Source: Candidatus Micrarchaeia archaeon
GTDB taxonomy: Archaea > Micrarchaeota > Micrarchaeia > Micrarchaeales > CABMGC01
Reading direction: 5' to 3'
DNA: 64,000 nucleotides
NCBI GenBank assembly: GCA_049966395.1
Contig: JBMFUT010000002.1
Location: 10,583 to 74,582 of the forward strand
The notes beneath the pieces are model-generated. The model did not search any database, was not told the origin of the DNA, and was given only the letters and a program-made list of their open reading frames with translations. Position numbers and translations under genes: made by a program. How positions within the stretch are numbered: position 1 is the stretch's first letter; every line of letters starts with the position of its first letter. Shown piece by piece: positions 9,959 to 61,678 of the stretch.

Positions 9959-10130
9959 AAGCCCTTTAGCGTCAGCCATGCGCGGCTTCTTCAAATTGGC
10001 AATATTCAAGCATTTCAAAATAGGTATTGGCATTGGGCAATGACCGCAGTGCCTAATGGCTATTGCATTCAAAGCGAATTCTTGCGCAATCTTCCGTCAG
10101 CGTTGTTCCGGCTCATGCATTCAAGAAACC

Positions 10131-10143
10131 TTTAAAAATATTT
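10131..10143 (+). promoter_or_regulatory. TATA box (TTTAAAAATATTT)
   Basis: Lies 24-36 nt upstream of the ATG at 10167, which suggests a leaderless transcript. Confidence 0.45.
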
Positions 10144-10166
10144 ACTGCAATATTATTGTGACCTTT

Positions 10167-12224: not shown

Positions 12225-12228
12225 TTTT

Positions 12229-12819
12229 TTGGCAAATGTGCAAAAGGCAAAGACCGAGGGCAGGCGCAATCCTGCAAAGCAGGAGCAGCAGCAGAAGGAG
12301 CGCCAGCAGAAGGAGCAGCAGCAAAGGGAGCAGCGCCGGAACAACGAAACTCTCGGATACATAGCCGCTATAGCAGCTATTGCAATAATAGTCTTCCTTG
12401 TGTATTTCGTCTTTTCAAACTACCTTACTACTTCATTCTCTGCTTTCAAGGGCAATTTCGACTCTGCGCCGAGGGTTGCGATAGCTGTAACATACAGCAA
12501 CACGACGCAGCTTCCATACCTTATAAACTGTCTTGAAAAGACTGCCTACATGCTTGCGCTGCATGGAAGAAAGGCCACGACAATGGACGTTTTCATCCTT
12601 AATTCCACGAGCTGCACTTATTCTATAACAGGCATAGGCGGACCGGCAAACATAACCACAACCCAGGCTTCCAAATGCCTAGCGGTGGCAAGGTCTGAGC
12701 CAAGCATATTCCTAAACTACAGCGTCACCAACAGCACAGAGATAACGCCGTACCACATGTACGTATATGGCAACAACGCTTATATGCAAGCTTGCGGCGT
12801 AGCTTCGGAGTTCTCGTAG
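12229..12819 (+). CDS. single-pass membrane protein with Q/K/E/R-rich cytoplasmic N-terminus and an ectodomain paralogous to the C-terminus of the preceding protein
   Basis: No ATG is present. The start is TTG (12229) or GTG (12238), 5 nt after the upstream stop. The N-terminus is KQEQQQKERQQKEQQQREQRR, followed by a TM helix. The shared motifs are SAFK, V.IA, four conserved Cys, and G(D/N)xAYMxAC. Confidence 0.5.
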   Translation: MANVQKAKTEGRRNPAKQEQQQKERQQKEQQQREQRRNNETLGYIAAIAAIAIIVFLVYFVFSNYLTTSFSAFKGNFDSAPRVAIAVTYSNTTQLPYLINCLEKTAYMLALHGRKATTMDVFILNSTSCTYSITGIGGPANITTTQASKCLAVARSEPSIFLNYSVTNSTEITPYHMYVYGNNAYMQACGVASEFS

Positions 12820-45669: not shown

Positions 45670-45678
45670 GGTGTTTTG

Positions 45679-46275
45679 ATGATACCAAATATAGACGAAA
45701 TAACCAAGGAGCTCTCTGCGCTTCAGAAGAGGCAGGACAGGGTGATGGATCTTTCAAGATCCATAATAAGACTGACAGGCTATGCGATAACAGCAATACA
45801 CAACCGGGACTTCAAGTCCTCTTCGGCTTCTATGAAGGAACTGCAAGCGCTCATGAAGGAGCTCTCAGTCGCAGAAAAAGGCTTCGAATACTACTCCCAG
45901 CAAGCTCATCAGGAGTTCACAGAGCTCATGGTATTCATGTCTGTAATCAAGGATGGTAAAATACCATCAATGAAAGAAATAGGCGAGACGGCAGTGCCCT
46001 ATCTGCTTGGCATCATGGACGTCGTCGGCGAGCTTAAAAGGGAGGCCTACGAGGCGCTCAGGAAGGGCGATGCCGCTGAAGCAGAGTCATACTACGAGAA
46101 GATGCAGGGAATATACGATGCAACGAGGCACATAAGGTTTGCGGAGTCTCTCATGCCGGGCTTCAGGAAGAAGCAGGATGTTGCCAGGATACTGATAGAA
46201 GGCACAGGCAGCGATCTTCTTGGAGTGGCGCAAAGTAAGCACAGACACTCTTCACCAGGAAAACGCAACAAATAA
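45679..46275 (+). CDS. translin-family protein
   Basis: All-helical ~198 aa. ...AVPYLLGIMDVVGELKREAYEALRKGD... matches the translin YLxGxxDxxGELxR motif. Confidence 0.55.
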   Translation: MIPNIDEITKELSALQKRQDRVMDLSRSIIRLTGYAITAIHNRDFKSSSASMKELQALMKELSVAEKGFEYYSQQAHQEFTELMVFMSVIKDGKIPSMKEIGETAVPYLLGIMDVVGELKREAYEALRKGDAAEAESYYEKMQGIYDATRHIRFAESLMPGFRKKQDVARILIEGTGSDLLGVAQSKHRHSSPGKRNK

Positions 46276-46321
46276 AAGGTTTAGACAGCTAATTTGCGGT
46301 ATTACAAATAAAGTGGTTAGT

Positions 46322-46900
46322 ATGAGAACCTTAAAAGCGCAAAGCGCAATGGAATACCTAATGACATACGGTTGGGCTATACTTATAATAGCCGTAGTGC
46401 TAGGGGCATTGTTCTCTTTGGGGGTGTTCAGCACCGCCTCTTTAGTTGGCACAACTTGCGTTGCAAGCTCTGGATACCTTTGCAGCAATCCCATATTGCA
46501 CGGTGGCTATTTCAACGTTACCATAGGCCAGGCTACCGGCACAGGCTGGTATAGTGCAATTGTATGCTTTGCGCCAGCCAACAGCACTGCCTCATTCTCA
46601 TCGATGTCGGCGCCAAGTGGCAATACTATTTCATTTTCTTCGATTCAGCTTTCTACTACTACAACTACCACTACCATCCCGCCACAGTTAAGTACGGTGA
46701 GCTGCCCGAGCGGTACGATAGCAGGCTTTGCAGCCCCACAGGCAATTGCGAGCGGGCAGCAGGTAAGCGCGTCTTTCAACGGCCTGCCAAGCACCGTAGG
46801 GGCAACAACATCAGGGGCGATATGGGCGGTATACCAAACTACAAGCTCAAGCCCTGTGTATGCAACTCAGATAGCAGTAGTTACACTCAAGGCGGTGTAA
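46322..46900 (+). CDS. class III signal peptide (type IV pilin-like) protein 1, with poly-Thr linker
   Basis: MRTLKAQSAMEYLMTYGWAILIIAVVLGALF: a basic leader, a KA|Q prepilin-peptidase-type site, Glu at +5, and a hydrophobic helix. There is an internal STTTTTTTIPP tract. Confidence 0.8.
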   Translation: MRTLKAQSAMEYLMTYGWAILIIAVVLGALFSLGVFSTASLVGTTCVASSGYLCSNPILHGGYFNVTIGQATGTGWYSAIVCFAPANSTASFSSMSAPSGNTISFSSIQLSTTTTTTTIPPQLSTVSCPSGTIAGFAAPQAIASGQQVSASFNGLPSTVGATTSGAIWAVYQTTSSSPVYATQIAVVTLKAV

Positions 46901-46944
46901 ATTCTTTTTCGTTTTTTGATCATTACTTATGTACATTCTGCCCA

Positions 46945-47171
46945 CAAAGTGCAATGGCAAGGTTTAAATAGGTTTTATTTGCAGTATTACCAGGAAAGTG
47001 GTTAGTATGAGAACCTTAAAAGCGCAAAGCGCAATGGAATACCTAATGACATACGGTTGGGCTATACTTATAATAGCCGTAGTGCTAGGGGCATTGTTCA
47101 GCCTCGGCGTCTTCAGCGGTGCTTCACTGTTGGGAACAACATGCATCGCTAGCAGCGGATACCTGTGCAGC
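46945..47171 (+). repeat. 227-bp direct repeat copy A (promoter plus the first 55 codons of pilin gene 2)
   Basis: Identical to 47587..47813 except for a 3-nt patch (GGC vs AGT at 46955-46957), by manual alignment at a constant offset of 642 nt. Confidence 0.85.
46961..46972 (+). promoter_or_regulatory. TATA box (GGTTTAAATAGG) of pilin gene 2; identical copy at 47603..47614 for gene 3
   Basis: Lies 35-46 nt upstream of the ATG and is conserved within the repeat. Confidence 0.5.
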
Positions 47172-47501
47172 GGGCTTATATGGTCGCACACAAATGGATT
47201 GCAGTTCACATTCGGCCAGAGCACTGGCGTGAACTGGGCAGGAGCCAATATTTTCTATGTACCTTCGGGCACCGCCGCGCCAAGTTCAGTACCAAGCACT
47301 TGCGTTCAGTCACTTGGAAGCTTTAACAGTGGTCAGTCAACTCCAGTAACTCTAACAGGCAGTTGCTATGGCACTACTGTATCTGGATTATCTTCAGTAG
47401 GTGCAACAACGGCAGGTGCATTGTGGGCAGAGTACCAGACAGCGGCCGGCGGAACACAATACTTTACCCAAGTCGCAACCCTAACTGCAAAAGCAAGCTA
47501 A
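47007..47501 (+). CDS. class III signal peptide (type IV pilin-like) protein 2
   Basis: Same N-terminal 55 aa as gene 3. The C-terminal end ...TAKAS is shared with gene 3. Confidence 0.8.
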   Translation: MRTLKAQSAMEYLMTYGWAILIIAVVLGALFSLGVFSGASLLGTTCIASSGYLCSGLIWSHTNGLQFTFGQSTGVNWAGANIFYVPSGTAAPSSVPSTCVQSLGSFNSGQSTPVTLTGSCYGTTVSGLSSVGATTAGALWAEYQTAAGGTQYFTQVATLTAKAS

Positions 47502-47510
47502 TCTGCTGAA

Positions 47511-47550
47511 TTTCTTTTATTTTTTCTTTCTATTTTTCTGTTTTTTTGGT
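47511..47550 (+). terminator. oligo-T termination tract after pilin gene 2
   Basis: TTTCTTTTATTTTTTCTTTCTATTTTTCTGTTTTTTT. Archaeal RNAP terminates at oligo-T runs. Confidence 0.45.
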
Positions 47551-47586
47551 GTTTAGCATCAACTTTATTACTGTATATTTGCTTTG

Positions 47587-47813
47587 CAAAGTGCAATAGT
47601 AAGGTTTAAATAGGTTTTATTTGCAGTATTACCAGGAAAGTGGTTAGTATGAGAACCTTAAAAGCGCAAAGCGCAATGGAATACCTAATGACATACGGTT
47701 GGGCTATACTTATAATAGCCGTAGTGCTAGGGGCATTGTTCAGCCTCGGCGTCTTCAGCGGTGCTTCACTGTTGGGAACAACATGCATCGCTAGCAGCGG
47801 ATACCTGTGCAGC
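47587..47813 (+). repeat. 227-bp direct repeat copy B (promoter plus the first 55 codons of pilin gene 3)
   Basis: See copy A. Confidence 0.85.
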
Positions 47814-48152
47814 AGCCCTATATTACACGGTGGTACTCTAACTGCAACAGTAGGTCAAGCAACTGGAGCCACATGGAGTGCAGCTACTCTCTGCTTGGTA
47901 GGCAGTGGTGTGGTACCGACAACATCATGCACAAATGTTCCTGGCGCAAATGTCATAGTTAGCGGAGGACTAGTGTCAGGGCAGACAGCAACACCTCAAT
48001 TTACTGCATATGTAAATTCTGCTGGTGGAGCAACTTCTCTGCCTAGCTCTGTAGGCTCCACATTCTCAGGCTACATATACGCAGTCTACACAGTCGGTAG
48101 TCAAAGCGGCCTTATGACACAGATAGCAACTATCACTGCAAAAGCAAGCTAA
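47649..48152 (+). CDS. class III signal peptide (type IV pilin-like) protein 3
   Basis: Same leader as genes 1 and 2. The central segment SSPILHGGTLTATVGQATGATW resembles gene 1 (SNPILHGGYFNVTIGQATGTGW). Confidence 0.8.
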   Translation: MRTLKAQSAMEYLMTYGWAILIIAVVLGALFSLGVFSGASLLGTTCIASSGYLCSSPILHGGTLTATVGQATGATWSAATLCLVGSGVVPTTSCTNVPGANVIVSGGLVSGQTATPQFTAYVNSAGGATSLPSSVGSTFSGYIYAVYTVGSQSGLMTQIATITAKAS

Positions 48153-48160
48153 TCTGCTGA

Positions 48161-48197
48161 ATTTCTTTTATTTTTATTCTATTTTTCTGTTTTTGTT
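48161..48197 (+). terminator. oligo-T termination tract after pilin gene 3
   Basis: ATTTCTTTTATTTTTATTCTATTTTTCTGTTTTTGTT. Confidence 0.45.
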
Positions 48198-48201
48198 AGG
48201 A

Positions 48202-49134
48202 TTAGCCTTCGCTCTTCTTTGCCTCTTCAATCATCTCCAGCGCTTCAATAAGCTCGTTGGCGCTTAGAAGCGGTTTCCTGAGCCTTTCATCGTCATCAGT
48301 GACCAGCCTGGGACAAGCAGTGTTGACGAAGGCATCGATTTCCATCATGTTGTTCAAGGAGTCGAAGTCGAAAGTGTTCGAAACCAGCAAGGCCGCCCGG
48401 AGCCCAGCCTTTTCTATCCTTTCCTTTATGATCTTGGCAAGCGCCATGTTGTACTGGCCGTTCTTCGTGCTAACCAATATTCCGAAACTCTTTGCATACA
48501 TCGCGCTCAATATTCTGCCTTTTGACCTCTTTTTGTAGGCCTCTCTATAGCTATCTATAAACTCTACCTTTTTCGCAAATGGCTCTACGACAAGGAAAGG
48601 CTTGGTGGTTGCGAGAAGCGCGCCCATTGGATGGAAGAGCCCTCCGCCAAAGTAGACGAAAGCGTCAACATCTCCATCTATTCTAGCCGCGCTGCCTACG
48701 TCGCATCCGAGTATCTGGCCTTCGTGCCTCGCGAAGCCATAAGGCTTCCCTATTAAAACCTTCTTTCCGTGCTCCTCGTAGAAGCGCTTTATTTCCGGAA
48801 GCTGCTGTACATGTTGGACAGTCGTCACTACTCCTATGGTATCGTGGCCCTCGAGCATTTTCAGCGATTCGGGAAGCAGCTCGAGGCTTGCGTCTATCCT
48901 GTATTCAACATATTCTACGTTGAAATCGACGCGCATGAATTCAGCATGGCCGAAATGCACTAGCTTGTCCGCGCCTATGCGCCTTGCCTCGTCCAATGCC
49001 AGGTCGCACGCTCCGAAAGTCGGCGATGCCGATATCGCAACCTCGTTGCCCTCTGCTTCGAGTTTTCTTGCGTACTCAAGAGCGTGCTGCTTTAGCCCTT
49101 CAGGAAACTGCAAAAGTATCTTCATTGCCATCAC
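48202..49134 (-). CDS. dph2: diphthamide synthesis radical-SAM enzyme Dph2 (2-(3-amino-3-carboxypropyl)histidine synthase)
   Basis: ILLQFPEGLKQHALEYARKLEAEGNEVAISASPTFGACDLALDEARRIGADKLVHFGHA, and conserved Cys residues (GACD, GCDV, NTACPR). Confidence 0.85.
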   Translation of the reverse strand: MMAMKILLQFPEGLKQHALEYARKLEAEGNEVAISASPTFGACDLALDEARRIGADKLVHFGHAEFMRVDFNVEYVEYRIDASLELLPESLKMLEGHDTIGVVTTVQHVQQLPEIKRFYEEHGKKVLIGKPYGFARHEGQILGCDVGSAARIDGDVDAFVYFGGGLFHPMGALLATTKPFLVVEPFAKKVEFIDSYREAYKKRSKGRILSAMYAKSFGILVSTKNGQYNMALAKIIKERIEKAGLRAALLVSNTFDFDSLNNMMEIDAFVNTACPRLVTDDDERLRKPLLSANELIEALEMIEEAKKSEG

Positions 49135-50087
49135 TTGAGATTCTCGTATTTAGTTGCCCTGTTCCACAGCTCGTTGAACCTTCTCTCAGCCTCGGTGTGG
49201 TTTATCCCTACAATATGCTCACTCTTTCTGTTTATTATGTTGAGCGGCGGTATCTTGTAGGCTATTGCCGAATCCATTATCATCCTCTCGTGCTGCCCCA
49301 CGGCATCGGCATCATCCATGATCCGCAATTCGAAGGCAGTGCCGCTGTTTTCGAGCTCCTTCTTGAAATCGTAATAGGCTTCAGAGAGCTCCTTGTTAAG
49401 CCTATCTCTTTTTGTAAGCACAGAAATGCTGCTGTAGTTGTTTGCATGGCCCCTCGAGATCCTGGAAAGATTTTTGAGCCCAGTGGCATCGAAGTGCGTG
49501 TCCAGTATCTTTATATCGCCATTGAGCTTTGACATGATCCTGTTTGAAAGCACTTCTATATTTGTGTAAGGTGTCTCGGGATTGACTTCAAAGTCCTTTG
49601 CAACCTTCTTTGGAGCTTTCCTCTCAGAAGTGGCAATGACGTAAATGCCCGCGACCACGCCTATGGCCGCGCCTACATAAGAGGATTCGAATATGTTTGC
49701 GGGCTCACTGAAGCTCAGGCTGAATTCAAGTATTGCCACAAGCACAGCTGCGACTATTGCAGAGAGCATAACTACTGCGGCTACAGCCCTTATATATGTG
49801 CGCGCAAATAGCCAGAGCGCGCCTGCAGCGAGGATTATTACAGCAAATGGAATTATGGCATAAGCGACATACATGGCTATGCTGAGCGATTGCATGCCTG
49901 CTATCGCAGCTATAGTGGAATTTGAAGCCTTTATACCGTATGCACTTATCGCACCGCTCAGCCCTCCGGCAAAGCCGATGGAGTATGATATCCTGGTTAT
50001 GAGAAAGAGCGCCCTGAAGGACAGCATCACACCGGATATCAGTGCAAGTATAGCACCTATGTACAGGCTCCTTTGCGTTGGCATCAA
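49131..50087 (-). CDS. membrane protein (about five N-terminal TM helices) with a C-terminal cytoplasmic domain of unknown function, possibly a degenerate PLD/Nuc-like fold
   Basis: 318 aa, overlapping the dph2 start by 4 nt. The C-terminal ...GQHERMIMDSAIAYKIPPLNIINRKSEHIVGI...RRFNELW is loosely reminiscent of HxK(x)4D...N.E...F..W. Confidence 0.35.
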   Translation of the reverse strand: MMPTQRSLYIGAILALISGVMLSFRALFLITRISYSIGFAGGLSGAISAYGIKASNSTIAAIAGMQSLSIAMYVAYAIIPFAVIILAAGALWLFARTYIRAVAAVVMLSAIVAAVLVAILEFSLSFSEPANIFESSYVGAAIGVVAGIYVIATSERKAPKKVAKDFEVNPETPYTNIEVLSNRIMSKLNGDIKILDTHFDATGLKNLSRISRGHANNYSSISVLTKRDRLNKELSEAYYDFKKELENSGTAFELRIMDDADAVGQHERMIMDSAIAYKIPPLNIINRKSEHIVGINHTEAERRFNELWNRATKYENLK

Positions 50088-50119
50088 ATCCTAAATAATA
50101 ATGCAAGAAAAAGTATAAA

Positions 50120-50689
50120 TTAGGCGGCTTCGACAGCAGCAGCGCCCTGAGCTTTGGCGCTTGCATTGCCAAGATCCTGCCTAATTATCTTGTATAATCC
50201 TGAAAGCTTTGATTTTGACCTCCTCAGCGCTTCGTAGCCTATTTCTTTCTTTTCTGAAGGTATCTTCACTTCAAACAGCGCCTGGCCCCTGCTGACTCTT
50301 GCCGCTACAGCCGTAGGCTTTCCGAATGCGAGGGTCATTCCCTGCGAAATTCTGTCTGCACCGGCCCCGGTAGCCATTCTCTTTTCCCTAAGCACGTTGT
50401 GAGGATATGTGAGCACTCTGAAGAAGTAATTGCCAGGAATCTCCCTTTCCAAATACTTGTTGGCTGCCTGTCTTGCGGCTTCTATAGCATTGCTCCTGAG
50501 CTGCACGTCGTTTTCAGCCTCAAGTATAAGCTTCATGCCGTAATCTGGCTTGTCAACACCCATCTTGAATATAAGCAGGCTAGTGTGTGGCAGCGCTTTT
50601 ATGTAGTTCTTCCTGGGCTTCCTAAGCGAGTACCTCGCCCATGCCTGGCTGTTTATCTTTCTAGTAGCTCTTGCAGGTCTAAGTCTCAT
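50120..50689 (-). CDS. rpl10e: ribosomal protein L10e (uL16)
   Basis: MRLRPARATRKINSQAWARYS...MATGAGADRISQGMTLAFGKPTAVAARV. Confidence 0.9.
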   Translation of the reverse strand: MRLRPARATRKINSQAWARYSLRKPRKNYIKALPHTSLLIFKMGVDKPDYGMKLILEAENDVQLRSNAIEAARQAANKYLEREIPGNYFFRVLTYPHNVLREKRMATGAGADRISQGMTLAFGKPTAVAARVSRGQALFEVKIPSEKKEIGYEALRRSKSKLSGLYKIIRQDLGNASAKAQGAAAVEAA

Positions 50690-50890: not shown

Positions 50891-51271
50891 ATGAATATAC
50901 AAAAAGGCAAGGTATTTCTGGGTTTCGCGAGGAGCATATACCCAAAGCTCATAATACTGGTGCTCTTTGTGCTTGGCGGCGAGTACAAGGCGTCTGTGTT
51001 CTCCCTTGACATAATAGGCACGCTCAACTACGTTCAGGCGCTGCTCATGCACATAGGTCCTATGCTGAGCGCAGTGCTTTTCATAGTGGCAGGCATATTC
51101 TACGCGCTTGGCCAGATGCTGCCTCCGGACAAGAAGGCAAACTTCCACACCGCTTCCATAAACATAATAATAGGCGCAGTTATAGTCGCTGTACTCTCTG
51201 TAGCTTCAAATGGGCTTGCAATAGCCTCAACGCACCTGCTTTCGAATCTCACCATAAACATGACAAAGTGA
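50891..51271 (+). CDS. small membrane protein with VirB2/TrbC/CedA1-like architecture (candidate conjugative-type pilin)
   Basis: 126 aa. Signal-peptide-like N-terminus (…LIILVLFVLGGEYKA), then two hydrophobic helices joined by the basic loop PPDKKANFH. The assignment is from architecture only. Confidence 0.4.
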   Translation: MNIQKGKVFLGFARSIYPKLIILVLFVLGGEYKASVFSLDIIGTLNYVQALLMHIGPMLSAVLFIVAGIFYALGQMLPPDKKANFHTASINIIIGAVIVAVLSVASNGLAIASTHLLSNLTINMTK

Positions 51272-51275
51272 ATAG

Positions 51276-52340
51276 ATGGATTACCAGCAGTTGCCCTTTG
51301 GCATTTACGGCTTCGGCATGGCAACTCTAATTATAGCCATAATGCTTTCAATAAGCGGGATAGTACTAGGTATAGGCTACGCCTTAGATGACAAGCGGCT
51401 CAAGGAATTTGGGAGAAGCGAGATATACCAGTCGATAATAAACGCCGCAATGGTAGGCGGTCTCTTGGCGCTTTTCGCCAGCAACGGTATAATTACATCA
51501 TTTATGAACAACATAACATACTCATCAAGCAGCAGCTTCTCATGCCCCGAGTTCATGTCGAACAACGCTGCGCTGTGTTTTGCGTATAATTACCTTGCTG
51601 GAAGCTCCCCTTACACTTTCATGGGATCGCAGCACTCGTCGCTTCTTTCTACTATCTCGGGCATGCTTTTCGCGCTGATAGGCCTTGCAATAGTGCTTGG
51701 CATAATAGCAGGCATAAGAATAGACCTTCTTGTGGCTTCATTTTCGTTCAGCAATGTGCTGAACCCTTTCCTTTCCGAACTGCAGCACATAATAACAATC
51801 ACTGCCGCAGCGTTTGTCGGAATATCAGTCCAAGCATCTGTGCTCTCGTTCGTGGCGCTTACTGCGACGACCGTTATACTTCCTACTGGGCTAATATTGA
51901 GAAGCTTTTATCTCACTAGGCGAGTAGGAGGCTTCTTCATATCTTTGGCAATAGGGCTTTACGTGGTATTGCCTTTGTCATATTTACTCAATGCCTTTCT
52001 TATGAACAGCTATTCCACAAGTATCAACCAGACAAGCATAGAAAGCGTAACCAGCACAGCAAGTTCATTCAGCGGAAGCCTAGACGGCATATCTAGCTAC
52101 AACTCTACCAACGAAACTTCAAATGGCGGTATTGTTGGCATGATAACTGGGGGAATAAGCTCTGTAGCAAACTCTGTCAGCGGCATTTTCAGTTCGCTGC
52201 TTGCCTTTGTCTCTGGCTTGGTAATGCAGGTTTTCATACTGCCTGCATTTAGCCTGGCAATAACATACATATCCATAAGGGAGCTTGCCAGAGCGTTAGG
52301 CTCAGAGGCGGCGTTTGGCGGTCTTATAAAGATGGTATGA
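51276..52340 (+). CDS. polytopic membrane protein (VirB6/TrbL/CedA-like by topology)
   Basis: 354 aa, about 6-7 hydrophobic helices, and a Ser/Thr/Asn-rich loop (…SYSTSINQTSIESVTSTASSFSGSLDGISSYNSTNETSNGG…). It starts 4 nt after the previous stop. Confidence 0.35.
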   Translation: MDYQQLPFGIYGFGMATLIIAIMLSISGIVLGIGYALDDKRLKEFGRSEIYQSIINAAMVGGLLALFASNGIITSFMNNITYSSSSSFSCPEFMSNNAALCFAYNYLAGSSPYTFMGSQHSSLLSTISGMLFALIGLAIVLGIIAGIRIDLLVASFSFSNVLNPFLSELQHIITITAAAFVGISVQASVLSFVALTATTVILPTGLILRSFYLTRRVGGFFISLAIGLYVVLPLSYLLNAFLMNSYSTSINQTSIESVTSTASSFSGSLDGISSYNSTNETSNGGIVGMITGGISSVANSVSGIFSSLLAFVSGLVMQVFILPAFSLAITYISIRELARALGSEAAFGGLIKMV

Positions 52341-53056
52341 TGGAATTGAACGACACAAACATTTACGCGTACGCCATATACGCTTTTGCAGTGCTTTCGC
52401 TAATTTCCGCAGCGCTTTTCGGCAGCGCAACCCTGCTCCTACTGGCGCTTGTCCTTTCAGCGGCATCAGTTATTTACATGCATTCGGGCAGAATAATAAA
52501 TGGCTTAATACTCAGTAGGTCCAGAGTAATAGAACTTTCAGGCGGCTATTCCTTGGATGGCAGCATGACCTCGGCAGTCAAAAGGGAAGGCGGTTCATAC
52601 AAAAGCGTTTCTATAGCCGAACTTAAAATGGACAAACCCCTGCAATACAAAAGCGAGCAGTTTGCCGAAATAATAGAGAAGGCAGGAGTGCCTTTCGAAT
52701 TTACCATAGGAATAAGAAAAATAAATACAAAGGCATTTACCGAGGCCCTGGAAACAAGGCGGAGGATGAAGGAAATAGCCATTTCTAACACTCCTTCTTC
52801 ATCATACGAAAGGATCAGCAGGCTCAAAAGAGAGCTGTCAATGATAGAAAACGAGATAAAAAGCGTGGAAGATGGAAGCAAGCCTGTAGAAGCCTTTGCT
52901 TACTTGCGCTCCTTCGCAACAGGCAGTGCCGCTGGCATAGCGGCGAGGGAATCCCAAGAGCAGCTTGCGCAAGTGGCCGAAATATTCAGGGCGGCGCTCG
53001 GAATAGGCTACAGCGTGTGCAAAGGCGAGGACCTTTTGCGAATAGTGGGGGATTGA
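52337..53056 (+). CDS. VirB3-like TM hairpin fused to a VirB4 N-terminal-domain-like region; ends at an in-frame TGA directly abutting the ATPase ORF
   Basis: 239 aa with two N-terminal helices (YAIYAFAVLSLISAALFGSATLLLLALVLSAASVIYM) and a soluble alpha/beta region. It overlaps the upstream gene with ATGA. Confidence 0.4.
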   Translation: MMELNDTNIYAYAIYAFAVLSLISAALFGSATLLLLALVLSAASVIYMHSGRIINGLILSRSRVIELSGGYSLDGSMTSAVKREGGSYKSVSIAELKMDKPLQYKSEQFAEIIEKAGVPFEFTIGIRKINTKAFTEALETRRRMKEIAISNTPSSSYERISRLKRELSMIENEIKSVEDGSKPVEAFAYLRSFATGSAAGIAARESQEQLAQVAEIFRAALGIGYSVCKGEDLLRIVGD

Positions 53057-54142
53057 GTGCGCACATTCAGGCAGAGCTCGCGGTCTGTAAGTAATCTTTT
53101 TTTCCTTATCGGAAGCACCGAGCCATCCAAGGCAGAAGCCGCAAAAGCATCTGACAGTTGCATATATCTTGGCAGAAGCTACATTCGTAGCATGCCGTCC
53201 TTCCTAGATCTAAGCGCGTCAATGAACCCTCACATATTCATATTTGGAATGACTGGCAGCGGGAAAAGCTACCTTATGAAGAGCCTGATAATGATGCTCT
53301 CTGTGGTTTCAGATGCGCTTGTCCTGGTAATAGATATAACTGGGGAGTACGCCGAATTTGGGGATTTTGCCGTGAATGTGGAATCTACAGCGCAGCTGCC
53401 TGAAGCGCTTCGCGGATGCAATGGGGGAATCATATATATGGATCTTCACTCCCTCATGCCAGAGGAAAATAAGATAGCAACTGCAGATTCTGCTCTTGTT
53501 GAGGCAACAAATTACATGAGGACTGGAGGAAGGAGAATGCACATAGCGATAGACGAGGCCTGGAAGCTTCTTTCGCACAGCAACACTCTCGAAATACTAC
53601 TGAGGGAAGGCAGAAAATACGGCTGCGGGCTTATAGTGGCGTCGCAAGCAGTAGAAGACGTGGCAGCGCCTCTTCTTGAAAATGTTGCAAACGTCTTCAT
53701 ATTCAGGCTCCAGGACAGGCAGAGCATAGAAGTGCTTTCTAAGAACTACAACATTTTGCCGTCTGAAATGGCTGAAATACAACGACTTGGAATAGGCAGC
53801 TGCATGCTGATACAGCTGCATGGCAAAGAATCAAGGAGTGCTTTTTTCATAAGGCGCATAGAAGGAGCCAAAGCTGACAAAATTCTAAAAATCGGAGCAG
53901 GTGACAATATGGAAGTCAGAATAGGCAGACAGGAGCTTGAGAAATTTATTGCAGATGTCGCAGGCAGCGACGCGGCAGTGATAGACGATGGGGATTATGT
54001 AGACCTGGCAGGGATGATAGCAGGGCTTTTGCACAGGGGAGCCGACAGGCACGCCATTCTTTTAGGCCTGTCCAAAATGGGCTTGAGCGACTTCGCAATA
54101 GCGGACGCGTTTTCAAAAGCAATAGACGAACCAAGGAAGTGA
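53057..54142 (+). CDS. VirB4/HerA-FtsK-superfamily P-loop ATPase (C-terminal ATPase module)
   Basis: Walker A GMTGSGKS (53246-53269), Walker B MHIAIDEAW, and REGRKYGCGLIVASQ. The conserved pre-Walker-A segment IYLGRS...LDL...NPHIFIFG lies upstream of the first ATG (53192). The start is therefore the GTG at 53057, or the ORF is read through from the upstream ORF. Confidence 0.6.
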   Translation: MRTFRQSSRSVSNLFFLIGSTEPSKAEAAKASDSCIYLGRSYIRSMPSFLDLSASMNPHIFIFGMTGSGKSYLMKSLIMMLSVVSDALVLVIDITGEYAEFGDFAVNVESTAQLPEALRGCNGGIIYMDLHSLMPEENKIATADSALVEATNYMRTGGRRMHIAIDEAWKLLSHSNTLEILLREGRKYGCGLIVASQAVEDVAAPLLENVANVFIFRLQDRQSIEVLSKNYNILPSEMAEIQRLGIGSCMLIQLHGKESRSAFFIRRIEGAKADKILKIGAGDNMEVRIGRQELEKFIADVAGSDAAVIDDGDYVDLAGMIAGLLHRGADRHAILLGLSKMGLSDFAIADAFSKAIDEPRK

Positions 54143-54146
54143 GCAG

Positions 54147-54818
54147 ATGAGGCAGAATGGCAAGAGATACCTGAATTCAGCAATAATAGTCAGGGCGGAG
54201 GCAAAGTGCAGGCTCAGCACAATAGAAAAGGCTATGGAAGGGTATCCCTCTGCCAAGGCTATTCGCCGCGGAACTTCACTGCTTTATTCCATAGAAGAAG
54301 ATAGCGACCGTTATTACGAAATAGAACTTTCGCAGAACTACATGCGCTTAGGCGTATTCTCTGAATCATCGCCCCTTTATTTCATGAGGGATGCCATGCT
54401 GAAATTGCTGAGCATTTGTTCATTCCTTCAGGGCAAGTATTCTGTAGACATTTCAAGCATATTTCCATACCTTGTAGAGTTGCTTGCAGACGGACAGATT
54501 GGCCATTATCGCGAGGTCTCAGCTGGTATACAATACACGCAAAGCGACTCCTACATCGTTTTAGCAAAGCGGATAAATTTCTTGCGAGCTGAAAAATCGG
54601 CATTGGAAGCAAAGCTGAAAAGTGCAACTGCCGAGGCCGATAGCCTTTTGGAAGGCATTCTGGTGTCGGAAGCAGTAAAGACCCCCTCTTCTATAGATGC
54701 GCTTTCAGAAAAATACAAGGTAAGCGCTAGAAGCTTTTCTTTGGCGCTTGAAAACCTGAAAAAAAAGGGATGGAAAGTGATAAACAACGGAAATCTTTTT
54801 ACTCTGGTGAACATATGA
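54147..54818 (+). CDS. hypothetical soluble protein of the operon
   Basis: 223-aa ORF starting 4 nt after the ATPase stop. It has a central coiled-coil (…LRAEKSALEAKLKSATAEADSLLEG…). Confidence 0.5.
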   Translation: MRQNGKRYLNSAIIVRAEAKCRLSTIEKAMEGYPSAKAIRRGTSLLYSIEEDSDRYYEIELSQNYMRLGVFSESSPLYFMRDAMLKLLSICSFLQGKYSVDISSIFPYLVELLADGQIGHYREVSAGIQYTQSDSYIVLAKRINFLRAEKSALEAKLKSATAEADSLLEGILVSEAVKTPSSIDALSEKYKVSARSFSLALENLKKKGWKVINNGNLFTLVNI

Positions 54819-55285
54819 ACAGCAGCATAGTGAATCTTCTGTTTCAGCTCTTGCCAATAGCGCTCGGCGTTGCTATTCTTGTTTCATTGAGGTCAATGAA
54901 TTTTGTCAAGCGCTATGCGATTCTGCACTTTCAAGATGAGCCAGGCAGCCCAGGAAGCAGCGCCTCAGAGCTGCCAGAGGCAAACGGCTTCAAGGAATTC
55001 GCATATGGCGAACTTATAATCAACGGAATATTCGAGGGCAGAAAAAACAGCATTGAGCATCGCGCCATGTCAGAACTATTGCTGGTAAGCGCATTGTCGT
55101 TGCACAGGCTGTCCGGAGCCTTCAATCCTCGCAATCACGACATCCTGAAGGTTGCCGTAAGCTCGTACGATGATGCGGCTAGCACTGTCTGCGCAGCGTG
55201 CAGCTATAGCAAGGCGGGAGGAATACTGCTTTCATACATGATAAATTACAAGCTTGACATAGAGGTCATTACACGAACATTATAG
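54815..55285 (+). CDS. hypothetical single-pass membrane protein of the operon
   Basis: The ATG at 54815 overlaps the upstream stop (ATGA). N-terminal helix: IVNLLFQLLPIALGVAILVSL. Confidence 0.5.
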   Translation: MNSSIVNLLFQLLPIALGVAILVSLRSMNFVKRYAILHFQDEPGSPGSSASELPEANGFKEFAYGELIINGIFEGRKNSIEHRAMSELLLVSALSLHRLSGAFNPRNHDILKVAVSSYDDAASTVCAACSYSKAGGILLSYMINYKLDIEVITRTL

Positions 55286-55323
55286 TTAGTCTGATATTCT
55301 CGCTTGCAAAGCTTACAGGCATC

Positions 55324-55467
55324 TTGGCAAGCCTTGCGCTTAGCACGCTCATACTTGCAGGCGCATTCGCCCCAGAGGGAAAGGTAAAAAGCGTAGAATA
55401 TTCTATCGGGGCAGCGATGGCCCTTACATTTGCTGTTGCAATTGCTGCATATCTGGTGTTTTCGTGA
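55324..55467 (+). CDS. small hydrophobic hairpin protein not in the ORF track (TTG start; the open frame extends up to 55258)
   Basis: The frame encodes (IIVSLIFSLAKLTGIL)ASLALSTLILAGAFAPEGKVKSVEYSIGAAMALTFAVAIAAYLVFS. Its TGA overlaps the GTG of the next ORF (GTGA). Confidence 0.4.
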   Translation: MASLALSTLILAGAFAPEGKVKSVEYSIGAAMALTFAVAIAAYLVFS

Positions 55468-55748
55468 TAAAAATTAAAAAAATTTACAAGGAAACAAGTC
55501 TTGTGCGTTTGTATGCGTCTGCAATTCTGGCAGGGGCGGGTGTGGGGTCTACAGCTTCAATTGTATTGTCATATGTTGACCAAATAAAATTAGGGCCTCT
55601 CTGCATGGTTTTTGCTTCGGGGCTGTTTGTAATGGTATCGTGGCTCAGGCACGGGCATCCACCTGGGCTGCTGCTTTCCAAAAAAATACTCGCCATAGCG
55701 GTGCTCAATATTGCGATCGCTGTGCTTTACGTTGTGGTGCTTTCTTGA
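55464..55748 (+). CDS. small three-helix membrane protein of the operon (GTG start)
   Basis: 94 aa with hydrophobic segments LYASAILAGAGVGSTASIVL, LCMVFASGLFVMVSWL and ILAIAVLNIAIAVLYVVVL. Confidence 0.5.
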   Translation: MIKIKKIYKETSLVRLYASAILAGAGVGSTASIVLSYVDQIKLGPLCMVFASGLFVMVSWLRHGHPPGLLLSKKILAIAVLNIAIAVLYVVVLS

Positions 55749-55750
55749 GC

Positions 55751-57928
55751 GTGAAATTATTCAATGTATCTTCAATTCCGGATCCGATGCGGCATATCAA
55801 CATGGTCAAAGCGCCATTGGGAAAGCCTTTCATGATAATACACAACCTTGCGTCATCATCAACGCTTGTGGCAGTTTCTGATAGCCGCGTAATCAAAGAC
55901 ATGCAAAATGCAGTTCTTGGCATGGAGTTTTCAGAACCTGGCGGAATAGTGGAACCCAACAATCCGATGATTATCACATTCTTCTCCCTACATGGCAAAA
56001 TGCAAATTCTTGAAGGCATTTACGCTGCGTTGAGGGGCTATGATGCTAGGGTTATAGTATCATTCATGCCTGCGGAGATGGCATATGTAGAGAACATGCG
56101 CAAGCGCCTCGAAAGCGCAATGAGTACGGAGGGCACTAGGTTCACCAGAAGCCTCAAAGGTAGATTCGGTTACGAGCAGGCAGGATCGCTCCAGATGGAC
56201 CTTTATTACGGCTCAGTCGAAAAGAGGATCGCTGAAGCCATGTTAGAAACTCTGAACGAATCCATTTTAGCAAATGGTATGGCATACAAGCTCGCCATAG
56301 CCATAGATGCAAAAGATCCGGAATGCGCCGAGCGAGCCAGGAGGTTTGTCATGTCACGAGTGCTTGTGCTTGATGAAAAAAGAGCACGCATCTCAGGCTT
56401 TGAAAGGCTTTTCGATTATCTCAAGTCAGCAGAAGCGGTCCCGTTCAGCATGCGCCTTGCTTCCCAGGCAGTTTCGTTTTCAGATAGGATACTTAGAGTA
56501 GTGCCGGTTGCCACCGCAAAGCCGATGCCTTTCCAAGGTGAAATCACGATAGGCTACTTTGTAGAGGATGCTGTTTCTCCAACCGGAGAAAAGATAACAA
56601 CAAGCAAATCTTCTTTCAACCTTGGCACTATAATAACTGGTTTGCCAGGCTATGGCAAGACAAGAGCTGCAATGTCGCTAGTAAGCCAGCTCGTAGGGAA
56701 TAACATGCCCTCTGTAATAATCTCTCCCACTGACGAATGGAATGCTTTTGCAGAATCGCATGGGATGCGCGTGATAAAATTTTACAACCAAGAAATACCA
56801 ATAAACTTTTTCTCGTGCCCAACAGGCACTAATGTCGAGCGCTTCTACGAAAACCTCGCAATGTTGATGGCCGCTGCATCAAATGCTGGCCCATACAAAA
56901 ACTCGCTGGAAAAGTGCCTGCTTTCGGCATTCCAAAAGGCTTACGCGAGCTCTGCCGATCCGGACCCTGTATCTACATACGATTACATAGAGGAAGCAAT
57001 AATAGAGCAACACGGGAAGCGCAGCAACGTCGGAGTAAAATATACAAAACACGGCGAAAACATAAAAGCAGCTTTGGAGAACCTTAGGCTGATGCTATCG
57101 AGACCAGAGTTTGCTACAAAAAACAGCGCGAATTTCAGGGAGCTCGTGGATAACGGCGTCCTTTTCGACCTCTCTGCAGTTAGCAACGAGATGAAACCCT
57201 TCTTCTACGCCCTAATACTAAACCAGGTTTACGCCATTGCAGATTCTTTCGATTCCTATGGGGAGCATGACTTAAGGATGCTTGTATGCATAGAAGAAGC
57301 GCAGCTGGCTTTCGGGGAGCAGCAGTCAGCGGCATCTTCTGATCTAAAGCAGCGCATACAAGACTTCAGGAAGCGCGGAATAGCCTTGATACTGATCGCT
57401 CACAGCGTGACTGAGATAGATGTAGGCATAAGGAGGCTATGCCAGACAAAGCTTTACTTCAGGCAGAGTTCAGATGTCGTTAAACTGGCGTCGCTTGACA
57501 TTGGAATGGAGGACAACGAGCAGATAATGGCAAGTTTGAGATCTCTCGGCCAGAGGAGATGCGCCTTAAGCTACGTAAGCTACGACAGGGGCAACAGAAG
57601 GCCTTCTGGTGCAGTCTTTGCCGAAATACCTGAGGGAGAGATTTACGGAAGCGTTGCCGCATCGCACGAAAGAAGCCAACCAGCGATCCCAAAGATGATA
57701 GACTGCAATATTTCTATAGGCGGTGCAGAAAGTCGCACTGGAATGCGCGTAGATCTTCACTATTTGGGAGAGAGGAGAGCGTCAGCGCTGCTCAGCAGTT
57801 CAGGCAACGTAATTTTCAAAGGACTGATAGAAGGAGCACAATACACACTGTTGTTGCGCGGCGAAAAGGCTAAGGACAGCATATCATTAAAATTCAGCGC
57901 TTCCGATCACGTCACATTGAAGCTGTAG
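55751..57928 (+). CDS. large HerA/VirB4-superfamily P-loop ATPase with a C-terminal beta-rich (carboxypeptidase-regulatory-like) tail
   Basis: Walker A GLPGYGKT (56639-56662), Walker B MLVCIEEAQ, and RKRGIALILIAHS...CQTKLYFRQS. The start is uncertain: GTG 55751, ATG 55787 or ATG 55802. The first 37 codons of the track ORF overlap the previous gene. Confidence 0.6.
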   Translation: MKLFNVSSIPDPMRHINMVKAPLGKPFMIIHNLASSSTLVAVSDSRVIKDMQNAVLGMEFSEPGGIVEPNNPMIITFFSLHGKMQILEGIYAALRGYDARVIVSFMPAEMAYVENMRKRLESAMSTEGTRFTRSLKGRFGYEQAGSLQMDLYYGSVEKRIAEAMLETLNESILANGMAYKLAIAIDAKDPECAERARRFVMSRVLVLDEKRARISGFERLFDYLKSAEAVPFSMRLASQAVSFSDRILRVVPVATAKPMPFQGEITIGYFVEDAVSPTGEKITTSKSSFNLGTIITGLPGYGKTRAAMSLVSQLVGNNMPSVIISPTDEWNAFAESHGMRVIKFYNQEIPINFFSCPTGTNVERFYENLAMLMAAASNAGPYKNSLEKCLLSAFQKAYASSADPDPVSTYDYIEEAIIEQHGKRSNVGVKYTKHGENIKAALENLRLMLSRPEFATKNSANFRELVDNGVLFDLSAVSNEMKPFFYALILNQVYAIADSFDSYGEHDLRMLVCIEEAQLAFGEQQSAASSDLKQRIQDFRKRGIALILIAHSVTEIDVGIRRLCQTKLYFRQSSDVVKLASLDIGMEDNEQIMASLRSLGQRRCALSYVSYDRGNRRPSGAVFAEIPEGEIYGSVAASHERSQPAIPKMIDCNISIGGAESRTGMRVDLHYLGERRASALLSSSGNVIFKGLIEGAQYTLLLRGEKAKDSISLKFSASDHVTLKL

Positions 57929-59696: not shown

Positions 59697-59977
59697 AATC
59701 TTATGATTTTGTTATCATATAAAAACTTTTGCATAGGCTTACGGATTGTCTAATTTTCTAATGGTGCCATAATCAGCGCTTTTCGGGATTATTTTATGTC
59801 GATTACATTAAGTATACTTATTTATACAAAATGAAATATTTAAATACTTTAAGTGTTAATTAAAAATTAAGAGTAGCGCTGCCTTGCGCTTTATAAGAAG
59901 GCTTTTCTGGGTTTTTAATTGCTGTGCGCTGTGGCTAGCGTCAGCGTGCTAATTTGTCAAATTGTATCCTGGGTGTT

Positions 59978-61678
59978 ATGATGAGTATAAGGTATAAGAT
60001 AACGAAGATGTTTAATTTTGGAAAAAAAGATCCCAGCGGCATAAAGATAACATTGGGCAAGTCAAGATACCTGCTTTCAAGGCCAATAAAACTTGAAAAT
60101 ATCCATGGGACTTTTACGTTTGTGCGGCGTTTTGCATGGAAGAAGCATGGCGGCACGTTATCGATAAGCCCCTCTAACGAGGCAAACCCACACATGCTGA
60201 TATTTGGTATGAGCGGACAAGGCAAGAGCTCATTGCTGCGGAGCATGATGGCAGATATAAGGGAATCGGGTGCAGGCGTGATAGTCTTCGACGCCCACAA
60301 CGAGCATGAAAAAACGGTTAGTAGCATAGGAGGCACAGTGGTGAATGCAGCAAATTCTGGCATAAACATATTCGCGTTAGAAGGAAGCACTGTTGGGGAG
60401 CGCATATCTGAGCTTTCCTCGATTTTCAGGCAGGTATACTCCCTTGGTTACCTTCAGGCAATAAAGCTTGAAGAATGCATGTGGTATGCCTACAGAAAAT
60501 GCGGAGCTTCAAGCAGAAGCGACACGCGACTGCTCAGGGAGCCTGTGCTACGTGACATAATGGCAGAGCTAAGCATATTCATAAAAATGTCAAAAAGCTC
60601 GTCAGAGCAAAACAGCCTTATGCACATAAGGAGCAGGCTTTCGCAGCTCTACAGCAGCTTTGGAAACACAGGCAGCATGGATTTGGGCAAAATGGAAAGC
60701 GGCATAACTTCTTTTTCGCTTGCGGGTCTAAGGAATGAAGAATCGCAGCTAATATACATAAACGAGCTTCTCAGAAGGCTGTACGCAAGGATGAAATCTA
60801 GAGAGAAGGAGAAGGGAGTTGGAATGTATATAATAATAGACGAGGCGCAGCAAATAATAAACGATTCCGATTCCCAAATAATAAAGAAAATAACAGAAGA
60901 AGGGCGCAAGTACGGCATAGGGGTAATAATAGCAACGCACATGGCTAGCAGATTGCCAAGGGAAATAGTTGCAAACGCTTCAACATTCATAACTTTCTAT
61001 TCAAGAGAGCCTCAGGAGGTCAATTACGTAGCCAACGTGATGTCAGAAGGAATGGCAGAGAAGGCATATGAAGTAAAGAAAATGCTTCAGAAGCTAAGAC
61101 AGAATGAAGCCATGGTCCTGAGTTGCGCGGTTCGAGAGCCCTGTGTTGTCGAAACGCCACGGGCAATTTTCAGTCCTGTGCCAGAAGCTGTCCAGGCTTC
61201 TGCAAGAAAGCCTGTGCTGGTTAGCTCCTCGGAGCTGATAGAAGGCATGCAAAACATGTACTTAAAATCTGGTGACAAAACAGAGCACTGGGTGATGGAC
61301 AAAAACGCCTCGACCAGCATAGAGCACGAGGTAAGCGTAAAGAAGATAGCAGAAGCACTGTATAGTCTAAGCATAAAGGCATCAATAATCAACAACTCAA
61401 ACGGCCCTGACCTAGTGGCTTACCACGATGGCAAAAAGATAGCAATAGAATATGAAACAGGCAGGAAAAAATTCAGCGACACTGCAAGGATGATTGCAGC
61501 AAGAAAGAAAGATTACGACGCAGTAATAATAGTAGTCAACGATGCTGCCTACAAGTTCTACAAGAACTATTTCGAAGACGACAGCGTGTGCGTAATCCCA
61601 TCGTCGTCTTCTACTCTTTTGGACAGCCTACGAAATGCAATAAAATTCGCTGCAACTGTGAAATGCGAGGGCTCCTGA
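59978..61678 (+). CDS. HerA/DUF87-type P-loop ATPase fused to a C-terminal restriction-endonuclease-like (Mrr/PD-(D/E)xK-like) domain
   Basis: ITLGKS...NPHMLIFGMSGQGKSSLL (Walker A 60206-60229), Walker B MYIIIDEAQ, and EEGRKYGIGVIIATH. The C-terminal ~110 aa are ...EHEVSVKKIAEALYSL...GPDLVAYHDGKKIAIEYETGRKK.... Confidence 0.55.
   Translation: MMSIRYKITKMFNFGKKDPSGIKITLGKSRYLLSRPIKLENIHGTFTFVRRFAWKKHGGTLSISPSNEANPHMLIFGMSGQGKSSLLRSMMADIRESGAGVIVFDAHNEHEKTVSSIGGTVVNAANSGINIFALEGSTVGERISELSSIFRQVYSLGYLQAIKLEECMWYAYRKCGASSRSDTRLLREPVLRDIMAELSIFIKMSKSSSEQNSLMHIRSRLSQLYSSFGNTGSMDLGKMESGITSFSLAGLRNEESQLIYINELLRRLYARMKSREKEKGVGMYIIIDEAQQIINDSDSQIIKKITEEGRKYGIGVIIATHMASRLPREIVANASTFITFYSREPQEVNYVANVMSEGMAEKAYEVKKMLQKLRQNEAMVLSCAVREPCVVETPRAIFSPVPEAVQASARKPVLVSSSELIEGMQNMYLKSGDKTEHWVMDKNASTSIEHEVSVKKIAEALYSLSIKASIINNSNGPDLVAYHDGKKIAIEYETGRKKFSDTARMIAARKKDYDAVIIVVNDAAYKFYKNYFEDDSVCVIPSSSSTLLDSLRNAIKFAATVKCEGS

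Follow-up and report, generated by a model that had tools for sequence, protein, structure and literature searches.

The window analyzed here is a 64-kb stretch from a Candidatus Micrarchaeia metagenome-assembled genome (MAG). It carries three pilin-like open reading frames (ORFs) in tandem on the plus strand, called gene 1, gene 2, and gene 3 in the order of that strand, which are flanked by a translin-like gene (45676–46275) and a convergent Dph2 gene (48202–49134). Taken jointly, the evidence makes it quite likely that they form a tandem array of separately promoted, type IV pilin-like genes whose 5′ modules were recently overwritten by gene conversion. Gene 1 (46322–46900) encodes 192 amino acids (aa) with an immunoglobulin (Ig)-like domain of the ‘KAV’ subtype and an insertion of ~30 aa that contains a poly-Thr stretch. 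Gene 2 (47007–47501) encodes 164 aa of the subtype ‘...FTFGQSTGVNW...YFTQVATLTAKAS’ and is the putative conversion donor. Gene 3 (47649–48152) encodes 167 aa and is the putative recipient at both of its ends. In the following, labels between L001 and L085 denote compared loci and labels of the form P0001 denote family proteins from other genomes; gene 3 is the ortholog of P0002/L001b/L002b. The product of gene 3 is identical to an NCBI hypothetical protein of ‘Candidatus Micrarchaeia archaeon’, with genes 1 and 2 as its neighbors ACP5K9_00800 and ACP5K9_00805.

Shared blocks and gene conversion in the array

A first-pass annotation of this DNA had reported identical gene starts at 46322, 47007, and 47649. 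The three ORFs are confirmed, and all begin with the protein sequence MRTLKAQSAMEYLMTYGWAILIIAVVLGALF; in gene 1, the leader MRTLKA precedes the mature start QSAMEYL. At the nucleotide level, which the first-pass annotation did not state for all three genes, an exact run of 105 nucleotides (nt) occurs at 46310–46414, 46995–47099, and 47637–47741. It consists of 12 nt of leader and codons 1–31, spanning the Shine-Dalgarno (SD)-like motif GTGGTTAGT, the start codon, the leader, and the cleavage site. Genes 2 and 3 have a longer 5′ block of 227 nt in common (46945–47171 and 47587–47813, respectively, plus strand), which contains the TATA-like TTTAAATA, the 5′ leader, and codons 1–55. Of these positions, 225/227 are identical, and the two mismatched bases, 46956 and 46958, fall inside the 3-nt patch to which the differences had been assigned before. 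The longest exact run between genes 2 and 3 measures 213 nt (46959–47171).

Only genes 2 and 3 have a common block at the 3′ end as well (47466–47549 and 48117–48200, plus strand), consisting of the last codons (TAKAS and the stop) and an oligo-T-rich flank. Its exact part, the 41-nt sequence ACTGCAAAAGCAAGCTAATCTGCTGAATTTCTTTTATTTTT, lies at 47484–47524 and 48135–48175, in agreement with the ~40 nt of coding sequence plus terminator start noted earlier. Similarity of ~80–92% continues to ~47549/48200, where the gene 3 copy abuts the Dph2 stop codon at 48202. Outside the blocks, the genes show ~45% nt identity and their C-terminal domains 38–40% aa identity. When alignment columns were shuffled 10,000 times, the longest identical run was at most 39 nt, compared with the observed 105 and 213 nt. 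The divergence profile is strongly non-uniform, with identity falling from 100% to ~45%, and the uniform divergence that had been named in the first pass as speaking against its reading is not seen.

Comparison between genomes shows that the near-identical blocks behave as gene-conversion tracts, and that this conversion is recurrent and proximity-dependent. All compared genomes have the same amino acids in the mature N-terminus, QSAMEYLMTYGWAILIIAVVLGALF. The 75 nt encoding it are 99–100% identical between paralogs within arrays (window, L001, L002, L004, and L005) but 79–83% identical between genomes encoding the same amino acids. This contrast bears out phylogenetically what the first-pass annotation had proposed, namely that the identical blocks reflect gene conversion and that the N-terminus evolves in concert while the cores diverge. 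Pooled over the compared loci, comparable codons are identical in 75% of cases within loci versus 37.5% between loci. For the window, we counted the conserved residues that use the same codon, per region and gene pair. In codons 1–31, every gene pair agrees at 27/27 such residues. In codons 32–55, agreement is 24/24 for genes 2 and 3 and 9/21 for gene 1 with either gene 2 or gene 3. Beyond codon 55, the three pairs agree at 14/41, 17/42, and 19/41 residues (34–46%).

The C-terminal domains are closer to relatives in other genomes than to each other. The gene 3 domain is 73% identical to P0002/L001b, that of gene 2 is 63% identical to P0020 and P0019, and that of gene 1 is 41–47% identical to P0045, P0110, and P0111 as opposed to 38–40% to genes 2 and 3. 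Hence, the paralogs predate the splits between these genomes and their 5′ identity is secondary. If the blocks were ancestral and had simply remained unmutated, genes 2 and 3 would have to have duplicated after the split from L001 and L083, contrary to the C-domain relationships. Orthology of gene 2 with L001a was discarded, their C-domains being just 39% identical. The orthologs further suggest a direction: P0020, the ortholog of gene 2, has the segment GASLLGTTCIASSGYLC and the end TAKAS, both as in genes 2 and 3, whereas P0002, the ortholog of gene 3, has GTSFMGTVCIPSSGFVC and the end NAKAT where gene 3 carries the sequence of gene 2. Therefore, gene 2 appears to have been the donor for both ends of gene 3. 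Since the shorter tract is found in all three genes, gene 1 must have taken part in one or more additional conversion events. The end of the 227-nt tract coincides exactly with the end of conservation across the family, after GYLC-S, which suggests that recombination might be limited by sequence similarity.

Tracts of 75–250 nt beside cores of 37–60% aa identity are also found in L001, L004, L005, L010, L019, L033, L081, and L082. Dispersed paralogs within one genome, although encoding identical residues, have 81–97% nt identity (mean 90%) over the 75 nt of the mature N-terminus, and dispersed paralogs of other genomes have 72–88%. Homogenized tandem neighbors are 99–100% identical, and some arrays reach only 67–93%. 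Partial homogenization has thus arisen independently in many Micrarchaeota arrays; it fades with genomic distance and accompanies the gain and loss of array members.

The first-pass annotation had also described the center of gene 3 as resembling gene 1. This is correct at the protein level for residues 56–77, but not in the sense of a recombination mosaic. Genes 1 and 3 are identical at 38/63 nt in this segment (60%, counted by hand), and nearly every codon differs at synonymous sites. The family consensus here is SNPxLHxGxxTxTxGQATGTSW, which genes 1 and 3 match and from which the gene 2 subtype departs. A recombination tract between genes 1 and 3 was therefore rejected, the likeness being a retained family consensus at the protein level only. 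Two further proposals did not hold. The variable cores are old subtypes with orthologs in other genomes and did not diversify recently as cassettes, and nothing points to a dedicated role of the conserved flanks as recombination modules. As the N-terminal protein sequence is invariant phylum-wide regardless of conversion, conversion is not needed for assembly competence and is read as a by-product. More simply, it would be the passive result of tandem proximity and protein-level constraint and not a dedicated diversification device.

Each gene of the array has its own TATA-like box, SD-like motif, ATG, full ORF, and oligo-T tail. The TATA-like TTTAAATA lies at 46963 for gene 2 and at 47605 for gene 3 (plus strand). 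Gene 1 has a degenerate form of it, TTTAGACA (46280–46287, plus strand), at the same spacing to the ATG as in genes 2 and 3. From their position and their conservation upstream of pilin genes in L083, L081, and L085, we infer that these boxes are promoters. Since oligo-T runs are generally known to terminate transcription in archaea, the oligo-T-rich 3′ flanks are putative terminators. A promoter/terminator scan of bacterial type, which has no relevance to an archaeon, returned no hairpin terminators. Scanning the array region against Rfam gave no match, and the base composition of the array is unremarkable relative to its flanks.

Pilin features and family

The proteins encoded by genes 1–3 have the features of class III signal peptides (PMC4371748): a short charged leader with K at −2 and A at −1 (MRTLKA↓QSAMEYLMTYGWAILIIAVVLGALF), Gln+1 and Glu+5, and a cleavage site that precedes ~25 hydrophobic residues. 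KG↓Q and RA↓Q sites occur in the Epd pilins of Methanococcus maripaludis (PMC4371748, Table 1), and the KA↓Q of the window fits the pattern [KR][GA]↓Q. An AlphaFold2 model of gene 3, built with 72 homologs, reaches a predicted local distance difference test (pLDDT) of 90 and predicts a helix at residues 9–32 followed by ten strands that form an Ig-like sandwich. The globular domain modeled alone reaches a pLDDT of 94. The best structural match in the PDB is the archaeal type IV pilus of Pyrobaculum calidifontis (8fk7_A; E 2.4e-3, probability 1.0), which is marginal. The predicted fold is therefore counted as compatible with a pilin, not as proof. The mature proteins contain only 2–3 charged residues, their C-terminal domains consist of 29–31% Ser+Thr, and they have four Cys; two of these, C46 and C54, do not vary across the family. 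In gene 1, the poly-Thr stretch STTTTTTTIPP (46652–46684, plus strand; residues 111–121) was confirmed to occur in this gene alone, as noted in the first pass. It lies in a lineage-specific loop insertion of ~30 residues, judged against the nearest relatives including P0045, and we infer that it might be glycosylated.

Genomic association gives some further support. In L030, two LamG-bearing family members lie directly upstream of a T2SSE ATPase gene (PF00437, E 1e-32), and this unit is 1.5 kb away from the short pilin gene beside Dph2. In L081, the distance between a T2SSE gene and the array is ~7 kb. Beside the compared arrays, neither platform nor peptidase genes were seen. The earlier designation of the genes as type IV pilin-like is thus sustained by the KA↓Q site, Glu+5, the hydrophobic helix, the beta domain, and the link of relatives to a T2SSE gene. 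Archaellins are not indicated, as the proteins have no archaellin match in Pfam or NCBIfam and the window contains no arl genes. For the micrarchaeote Mia14, a lack of archaellum genes has been reported, together with two type IV pilus systems, a single FlaK-like peptidase, and LamG proteins associated with pilus loci (PMC5498576).

The family is very large: an exhaustive profile search yields 7208 cluster representatives at E ≤ 1e-3 and 2997 at E ≤ 1e-10. A word-index search found 1720 matches, all of them unnamed proteins, with Micrarchaeota or bins labeled Marsarchaeota as the named sources. About one-third of the top 150 representatives are long proteins of 260–866 aa. In these, a complete pilin domain is followed by a Ser/Thr linker and then by DUF2341, LamG (Laminin_G_3), Kelch or other beta-propellers, PKD, InlB B-repeat, or PT-HINT. 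Such modular long forms are present at L008 (5980–7638), L030 (1331–3110), L046, L064, and L072, and among P0122–P0262.

Two observations on individual genomes may be added. The cultured Ca. Micrarchaeum sp. A_DKE (L008) has a 552-aa version with DUF2341, located alone between amino-acid permease and NFACT genes. In L040 and L059 (DATLRT01, labeled Candidatus Acidiferrales bacterium), a Micrarchaeota pilin gene lies beside Dph2, which is probably due to bin contamination.

Weighing the alternatives

Several observations weigh against the interpretation as a pilin array shaped by conversion. Neither the three proteins nor the N-terminus alone match any relevant Pfam or NCBIfam model, even at lax thresholds (E ≤ 1–10), and neither the family profile nor the N-terminus finds a sequence match in the PDB. 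The globular domain alone matches generic Ig-like folds, with 8fk7_A at rank 3 (E 3e-2, template-modeling (TM) score 0.44). In agreement with the first-pass annotation, which had found no PilB, PilC, or prepilin peptidase gene in the window, a Pfam scan of the 48 window ORFs of at least 126 aa detects no T2SSE, T2SSF, or Peptidase_A24, and the unannotated ORFs are unlike a prepilin peptidase with its multiple transmembrane segments. Conversion is weak or absent in L018, L020, L023, and L029 (67–93% identity). The repeat structure of the MAG contig was judged from the assembled sequence, and a second assembly of the strain was not found: an exact scan of metagenome contigs with a window-specific 42-nt block gave 0 matches. 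That the window lacks machinery genes is nothing unusual, since standalone pilin genes are common in archaea (PMC4371748; bioRxiv 10.64898/2026.04.22.720090).

The missing match to a curated pilin family and the weak likeness to solved pilins would also suit surface proteins that carry a class III signal as an anchor and are not filament subunits, whether bindosome-like, pseudopilus-like, or S-layer-associated, with the paralogs as alternative receptors. Many relatives are long and carry lectin or propeller domains, and these might be anchored adhesins. Moreover, membrane-associated pilins of Haloferax promote some adhesion without assembly (PMC4371748). We nevertheless consider such anchored proteins unlikely. 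Thousands of family proteins share Q+1, E+5, and the helix of 25 residues without variation, which is typical of mutually packing subunits, the size and architecture are those of archaeal pilins, and the relatives beside the T2SSE ATPase gene also favor filament subunits. The probability is smaller still for programmed antigenic or phase variation of the Neisseria pilE/pilS type, in which the conserved blocks would be sites of cassette swapping. In Neisseria, a single expression locus receives variable sequence from silent cassettes that lack promoters. The window resembles this system in the non-reciprocal recombination between pilin paralogs and in the conserved segments around variable regions: the blocks flank a divergent core in genes 2 and 3, and the composition of the array varies between related genomes. 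However, each of the three window copies is a complete gene and has expression signals of its own, the 3′ block is restricted to two of them, and the converted parts are the conserved ends and not the variable core. The cores themselves are old and have orthologs elsewhere. Searches of the 64-kb window with the three genes (tblastn and blastn) recovered only those three, and no silent, promoterless, or partial copies. Programmed variation is thus very unlikely.

The source of the contig raises the question of an assembly artefact, in which strain variants of a single-copy gene were stitched in tandem or repeats were collapsed or copied. Exact repeats of 213 nt are longer than typical k-mer sizes, and the close relative L083 has a single gene at this position. 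On the other hand, the junction between genes 2 and 3 (~47550–47586) is unique sequence that allelic variants could not supply, and nested tracts of unequal length (105 and 227 nt) are not expected from collapse. The same architecture occurs in many independent assemblies from different projects, including chromosome-scale contigs of 0.6–0.9 Mb (L004/L080, L005, L081, and L082), so that we regard an artefact as highly improbable. Least credible of all is that the identity is kept by selection on DNA or RNA, through codon bias or through mRNA structure needed for translation or signal recognition particle (SRP) targeting. mRNA-level constraints are known in general for ribosome-binding and signal-anchor regions. 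The tract does cover the ribosome-binding region and the signal-anchor codons, and the genes are probably highly expressed. Yet the same amino acids are encoded elsewhere with 17–21% nt differences, and between genes 1 and 2, 21/24 amino acids are kept in codons 32–55 but, as given above, few of the codons. The lack of an Rfam match also speaks against this explanation. Codon bias and mRNA-level selection are excluded because dispersed paralogs in one genome are less identical than tandem ones. Gene conversion in a tandem pilin array remains the preferred explanation.

Genomic setting, related systems, and possible function

The Dph2 gene downstream of the array (48202–49134, minus strand) encodes a diphthamide synthase (PF01866, E 6e-72). 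A short family member just upstream of convergent Dph2, followed by L10e, is found in 41 compared loci with 1–4 copies. The gap between the last short pilin and Dph2 is 53–406 nt in 39/41 loci and 848 and 1630 nt in the other two. Copy number and subtype vary among relatives. L083 is fully syntenic with the window (flanking genes ~75% nt identity) and has a single gene of the gene 2 type, L001 and L002 (~68% identical) have two genes, one of another subtype and one of the gene 3 type, and L082 has four. This variable copy number indicates that array members are gained and lost over time and that partial conversion adds to this. In L082 (10695–11955), the last two genes are identical throughout the gene and over the 200 nt before it, with an exact match of 561 nt following the Gln codon, which is a very recent tandem duplication of the whole unit, unlike the partial tracts elsewhere.

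Several side observations concern the same neighborhood. The Dph2-L10e linkage of short pilins (48202–50689 in the window, and the 41 loci) is kept in widely divergent Micrarchaeota, and its outer surroundings vary, with a type IV secretion system (T4SS)-like cluster in some genomes and FtsZ-SMC in others. In L083 (6582–7617), Dph2 is called as two pieces of 66 and 294 aa, which could reflect a frameshift, a sequencing error, or a pseudogene.

How the array might work can be sketched from the features of the proteins. Each precursor would be inserted by Sec and cleaved between Ala6 and Gln7 by a FlaK/EppA-type prepilin peptidase, presumably encoded elsewhere in the genome, and a PilB/PilC-type machine would polymerize the mature subunits. 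The helix QSAMEYLMTYGWAILIIAVVLGALF might form the filament core, with the Ser/Thr-rich, nearly uncharged, disulfide-containing Ig-like domain facing outward. Because the N-terminal helix is identical, all three heads should be usable by one machine, alone or mixed. The three heads are old, distinct subtypes whose 5′ module was recently overwritten between tandem neighbors, over 105 nt in all three genes and, from gene 2 to gene 3, over 227 nt plus a 3′ tract of 41–84 nt.

Among characterized systems, PilA1–PilA6 of Haloferax volcanii offer a close parallel. They are paralogous pilins with a nearly fully conserved hydrophobic N-terminus and divergent globular parts and, like the window genes, sit apart from pilB/pilC. 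Each PilA paralog is reported to be capable of forming a pilus, with differing adhesive behavior (PMC4371748; Esquivel et al. 2013 cited there). In contrast to the window genes, Haloferax PilA have cleavage sites of the RA↓V and DA↓V type and not KA↓Q, and there is no detectable sequence homology between the two groups. A tandem array or nucleotide homogenization is not described for Haloferax PilA in the literature searched; for the window genes, tract structure and conversion are shown, and the pilin function is putative.

The Epd pilins of M. maripaludis and archaeal type IV filament (TFF) ‘system 1’ share with the window the [KR][GA]↓Q site, many paralogs, and standalone pilin genes (PMC4371748, Table 1; bioRxiv 10.64898/2026.04.22.720090). 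System 1 is reported in methanogens and DPANN (bioRxiv 10.64898/2026.04.22.720090), and one of the two pilus systems of Mia14 belongs to the Methanococci group (PMC5498576). The major Epd pilin, however, reportedly lacks a globular domain, whereas the window proteins have an Ig-like domain of 110–135 residues. In this comparison, the window proteins match neither Pfam Class_IIIsignal nor any other curated model. Assignment of the window pilins to system 1 may serve as a lead. The pilus subunit of P. calidifontis (8fk7) resembles the predicted fold in its N-terminal helix followed by a beta-sandwich, but sequence identity is only 10–14%, with TM scores of 0.37–0.44 and E-values of 2e-3 to 3e-2, and generic Ig-like folds are about as good a match for the sandwich alone.

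With respect to conversion, long-lasting concerted evolution of prokaryotic paralogs is known for tuf, mtrA, and bacterial flagellin, and often concerns subunits of homopolymers (PMC6053082). As in the window, paralogs within a genome are closer to each other than orthologs between genomes, repeatedly across lineages. The window differs in that just a sub-gene module of 105–230 nt is homogenized and the cores escaped conversion. The 26 genes listed in PMC6053082 include neither pilins nor DPANN genes. It is already known that pilin paralogs can have a common N-terminus, as in Haloferax PilA1–6, and that tandem paralogs undergo conversion; the proteins of this family all carry the annotation hypothetical.

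The possible significance lies in the lifestyle of the source lineage. Micrarchaeota, which belong to the DPANN archaea, rely on physical contact with Thermoplasmatales hosts. Pili-like fibers have been imaged between cells of archaeal Richmond Mine acidophilic nanoorganisms (ARMAN) and Thermoplasmatales (PMC4110969). Pilus machinery genes of Micrarchaeota have been noted (PMC5498576), and filament subunits are not described in the literature searched. The array belongs to a very large, unannotated candidate pilin family with a fixed Dph2-L10e address, variable copy number, and long forms that bear adhesin domains. It thereby offers concrete candidates for filament subunits and adhesins for work on DPANN symbiosis in existing co-cultures, and the locus is a natural illustration of how gene conversion, in an archaeon whose genome is reduced, can act on part of a gene and depend on proximity. 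A role of the variable heads in recognition of a host or partner is plausible. A more far-reaching scenario, which we rate as rather unlikely, is that a universal N-terminal module kept by conversion feeds changeable heads, both the short pilins and the long adhesin fusions with LamG, beta-propeller, DUF2341, and HINT, into a single filament, and that gain, loss, and exchange of heads sets the range of Thermoplasmatales hosts. If this were true, the array would be a host-range determinant of the DPANN symbiosis.

A few features in the wider surroundings deserve mention. A 318-aa protein (49131–50087), predicted to have five N-terminal transmembrane segments ahead of a soluble C-terminal domain, is without a Pfam match; it lies between Dph2 and L10e in the window and in L083 and is absent from this position in L001 and L080. 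A conjugation/Ced-like (T4SS-like) cluster begins 2.7 kb downstream of the array (50891–57928 and 59954–61678). It encodes a 126-aa two-helix protein that resembles T4SS_pilin (PF18895) at E 8.8e-5, below the Pfam cut-off, a 354-aa protein with eight transmembrane segments, a 239-aa protein with two, and three DUF87/HerA/TraG/TrwB-like ATPases (361, 762, and 574 aa). Its first part is conserved in synteny in L083 and L001 but absent beside the arrays of L080, L081, L082, and L030. A functional link between array and cluster was rejected as a conserved association, as the cluster is missing from these four loci while Dph2-L10e stays. Far upstream of the array, at 10056–12819, a 722-aa membrane protein very rich in Asn-x-Ser/Thr is followed by a 196-aa protein, neither with a family match. 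The region preceding them, at 6829–9900, encodes a 1023-aa protein with an S_layer_C domain (PF05124, E 3e-16), which is probably an S-layer protein.

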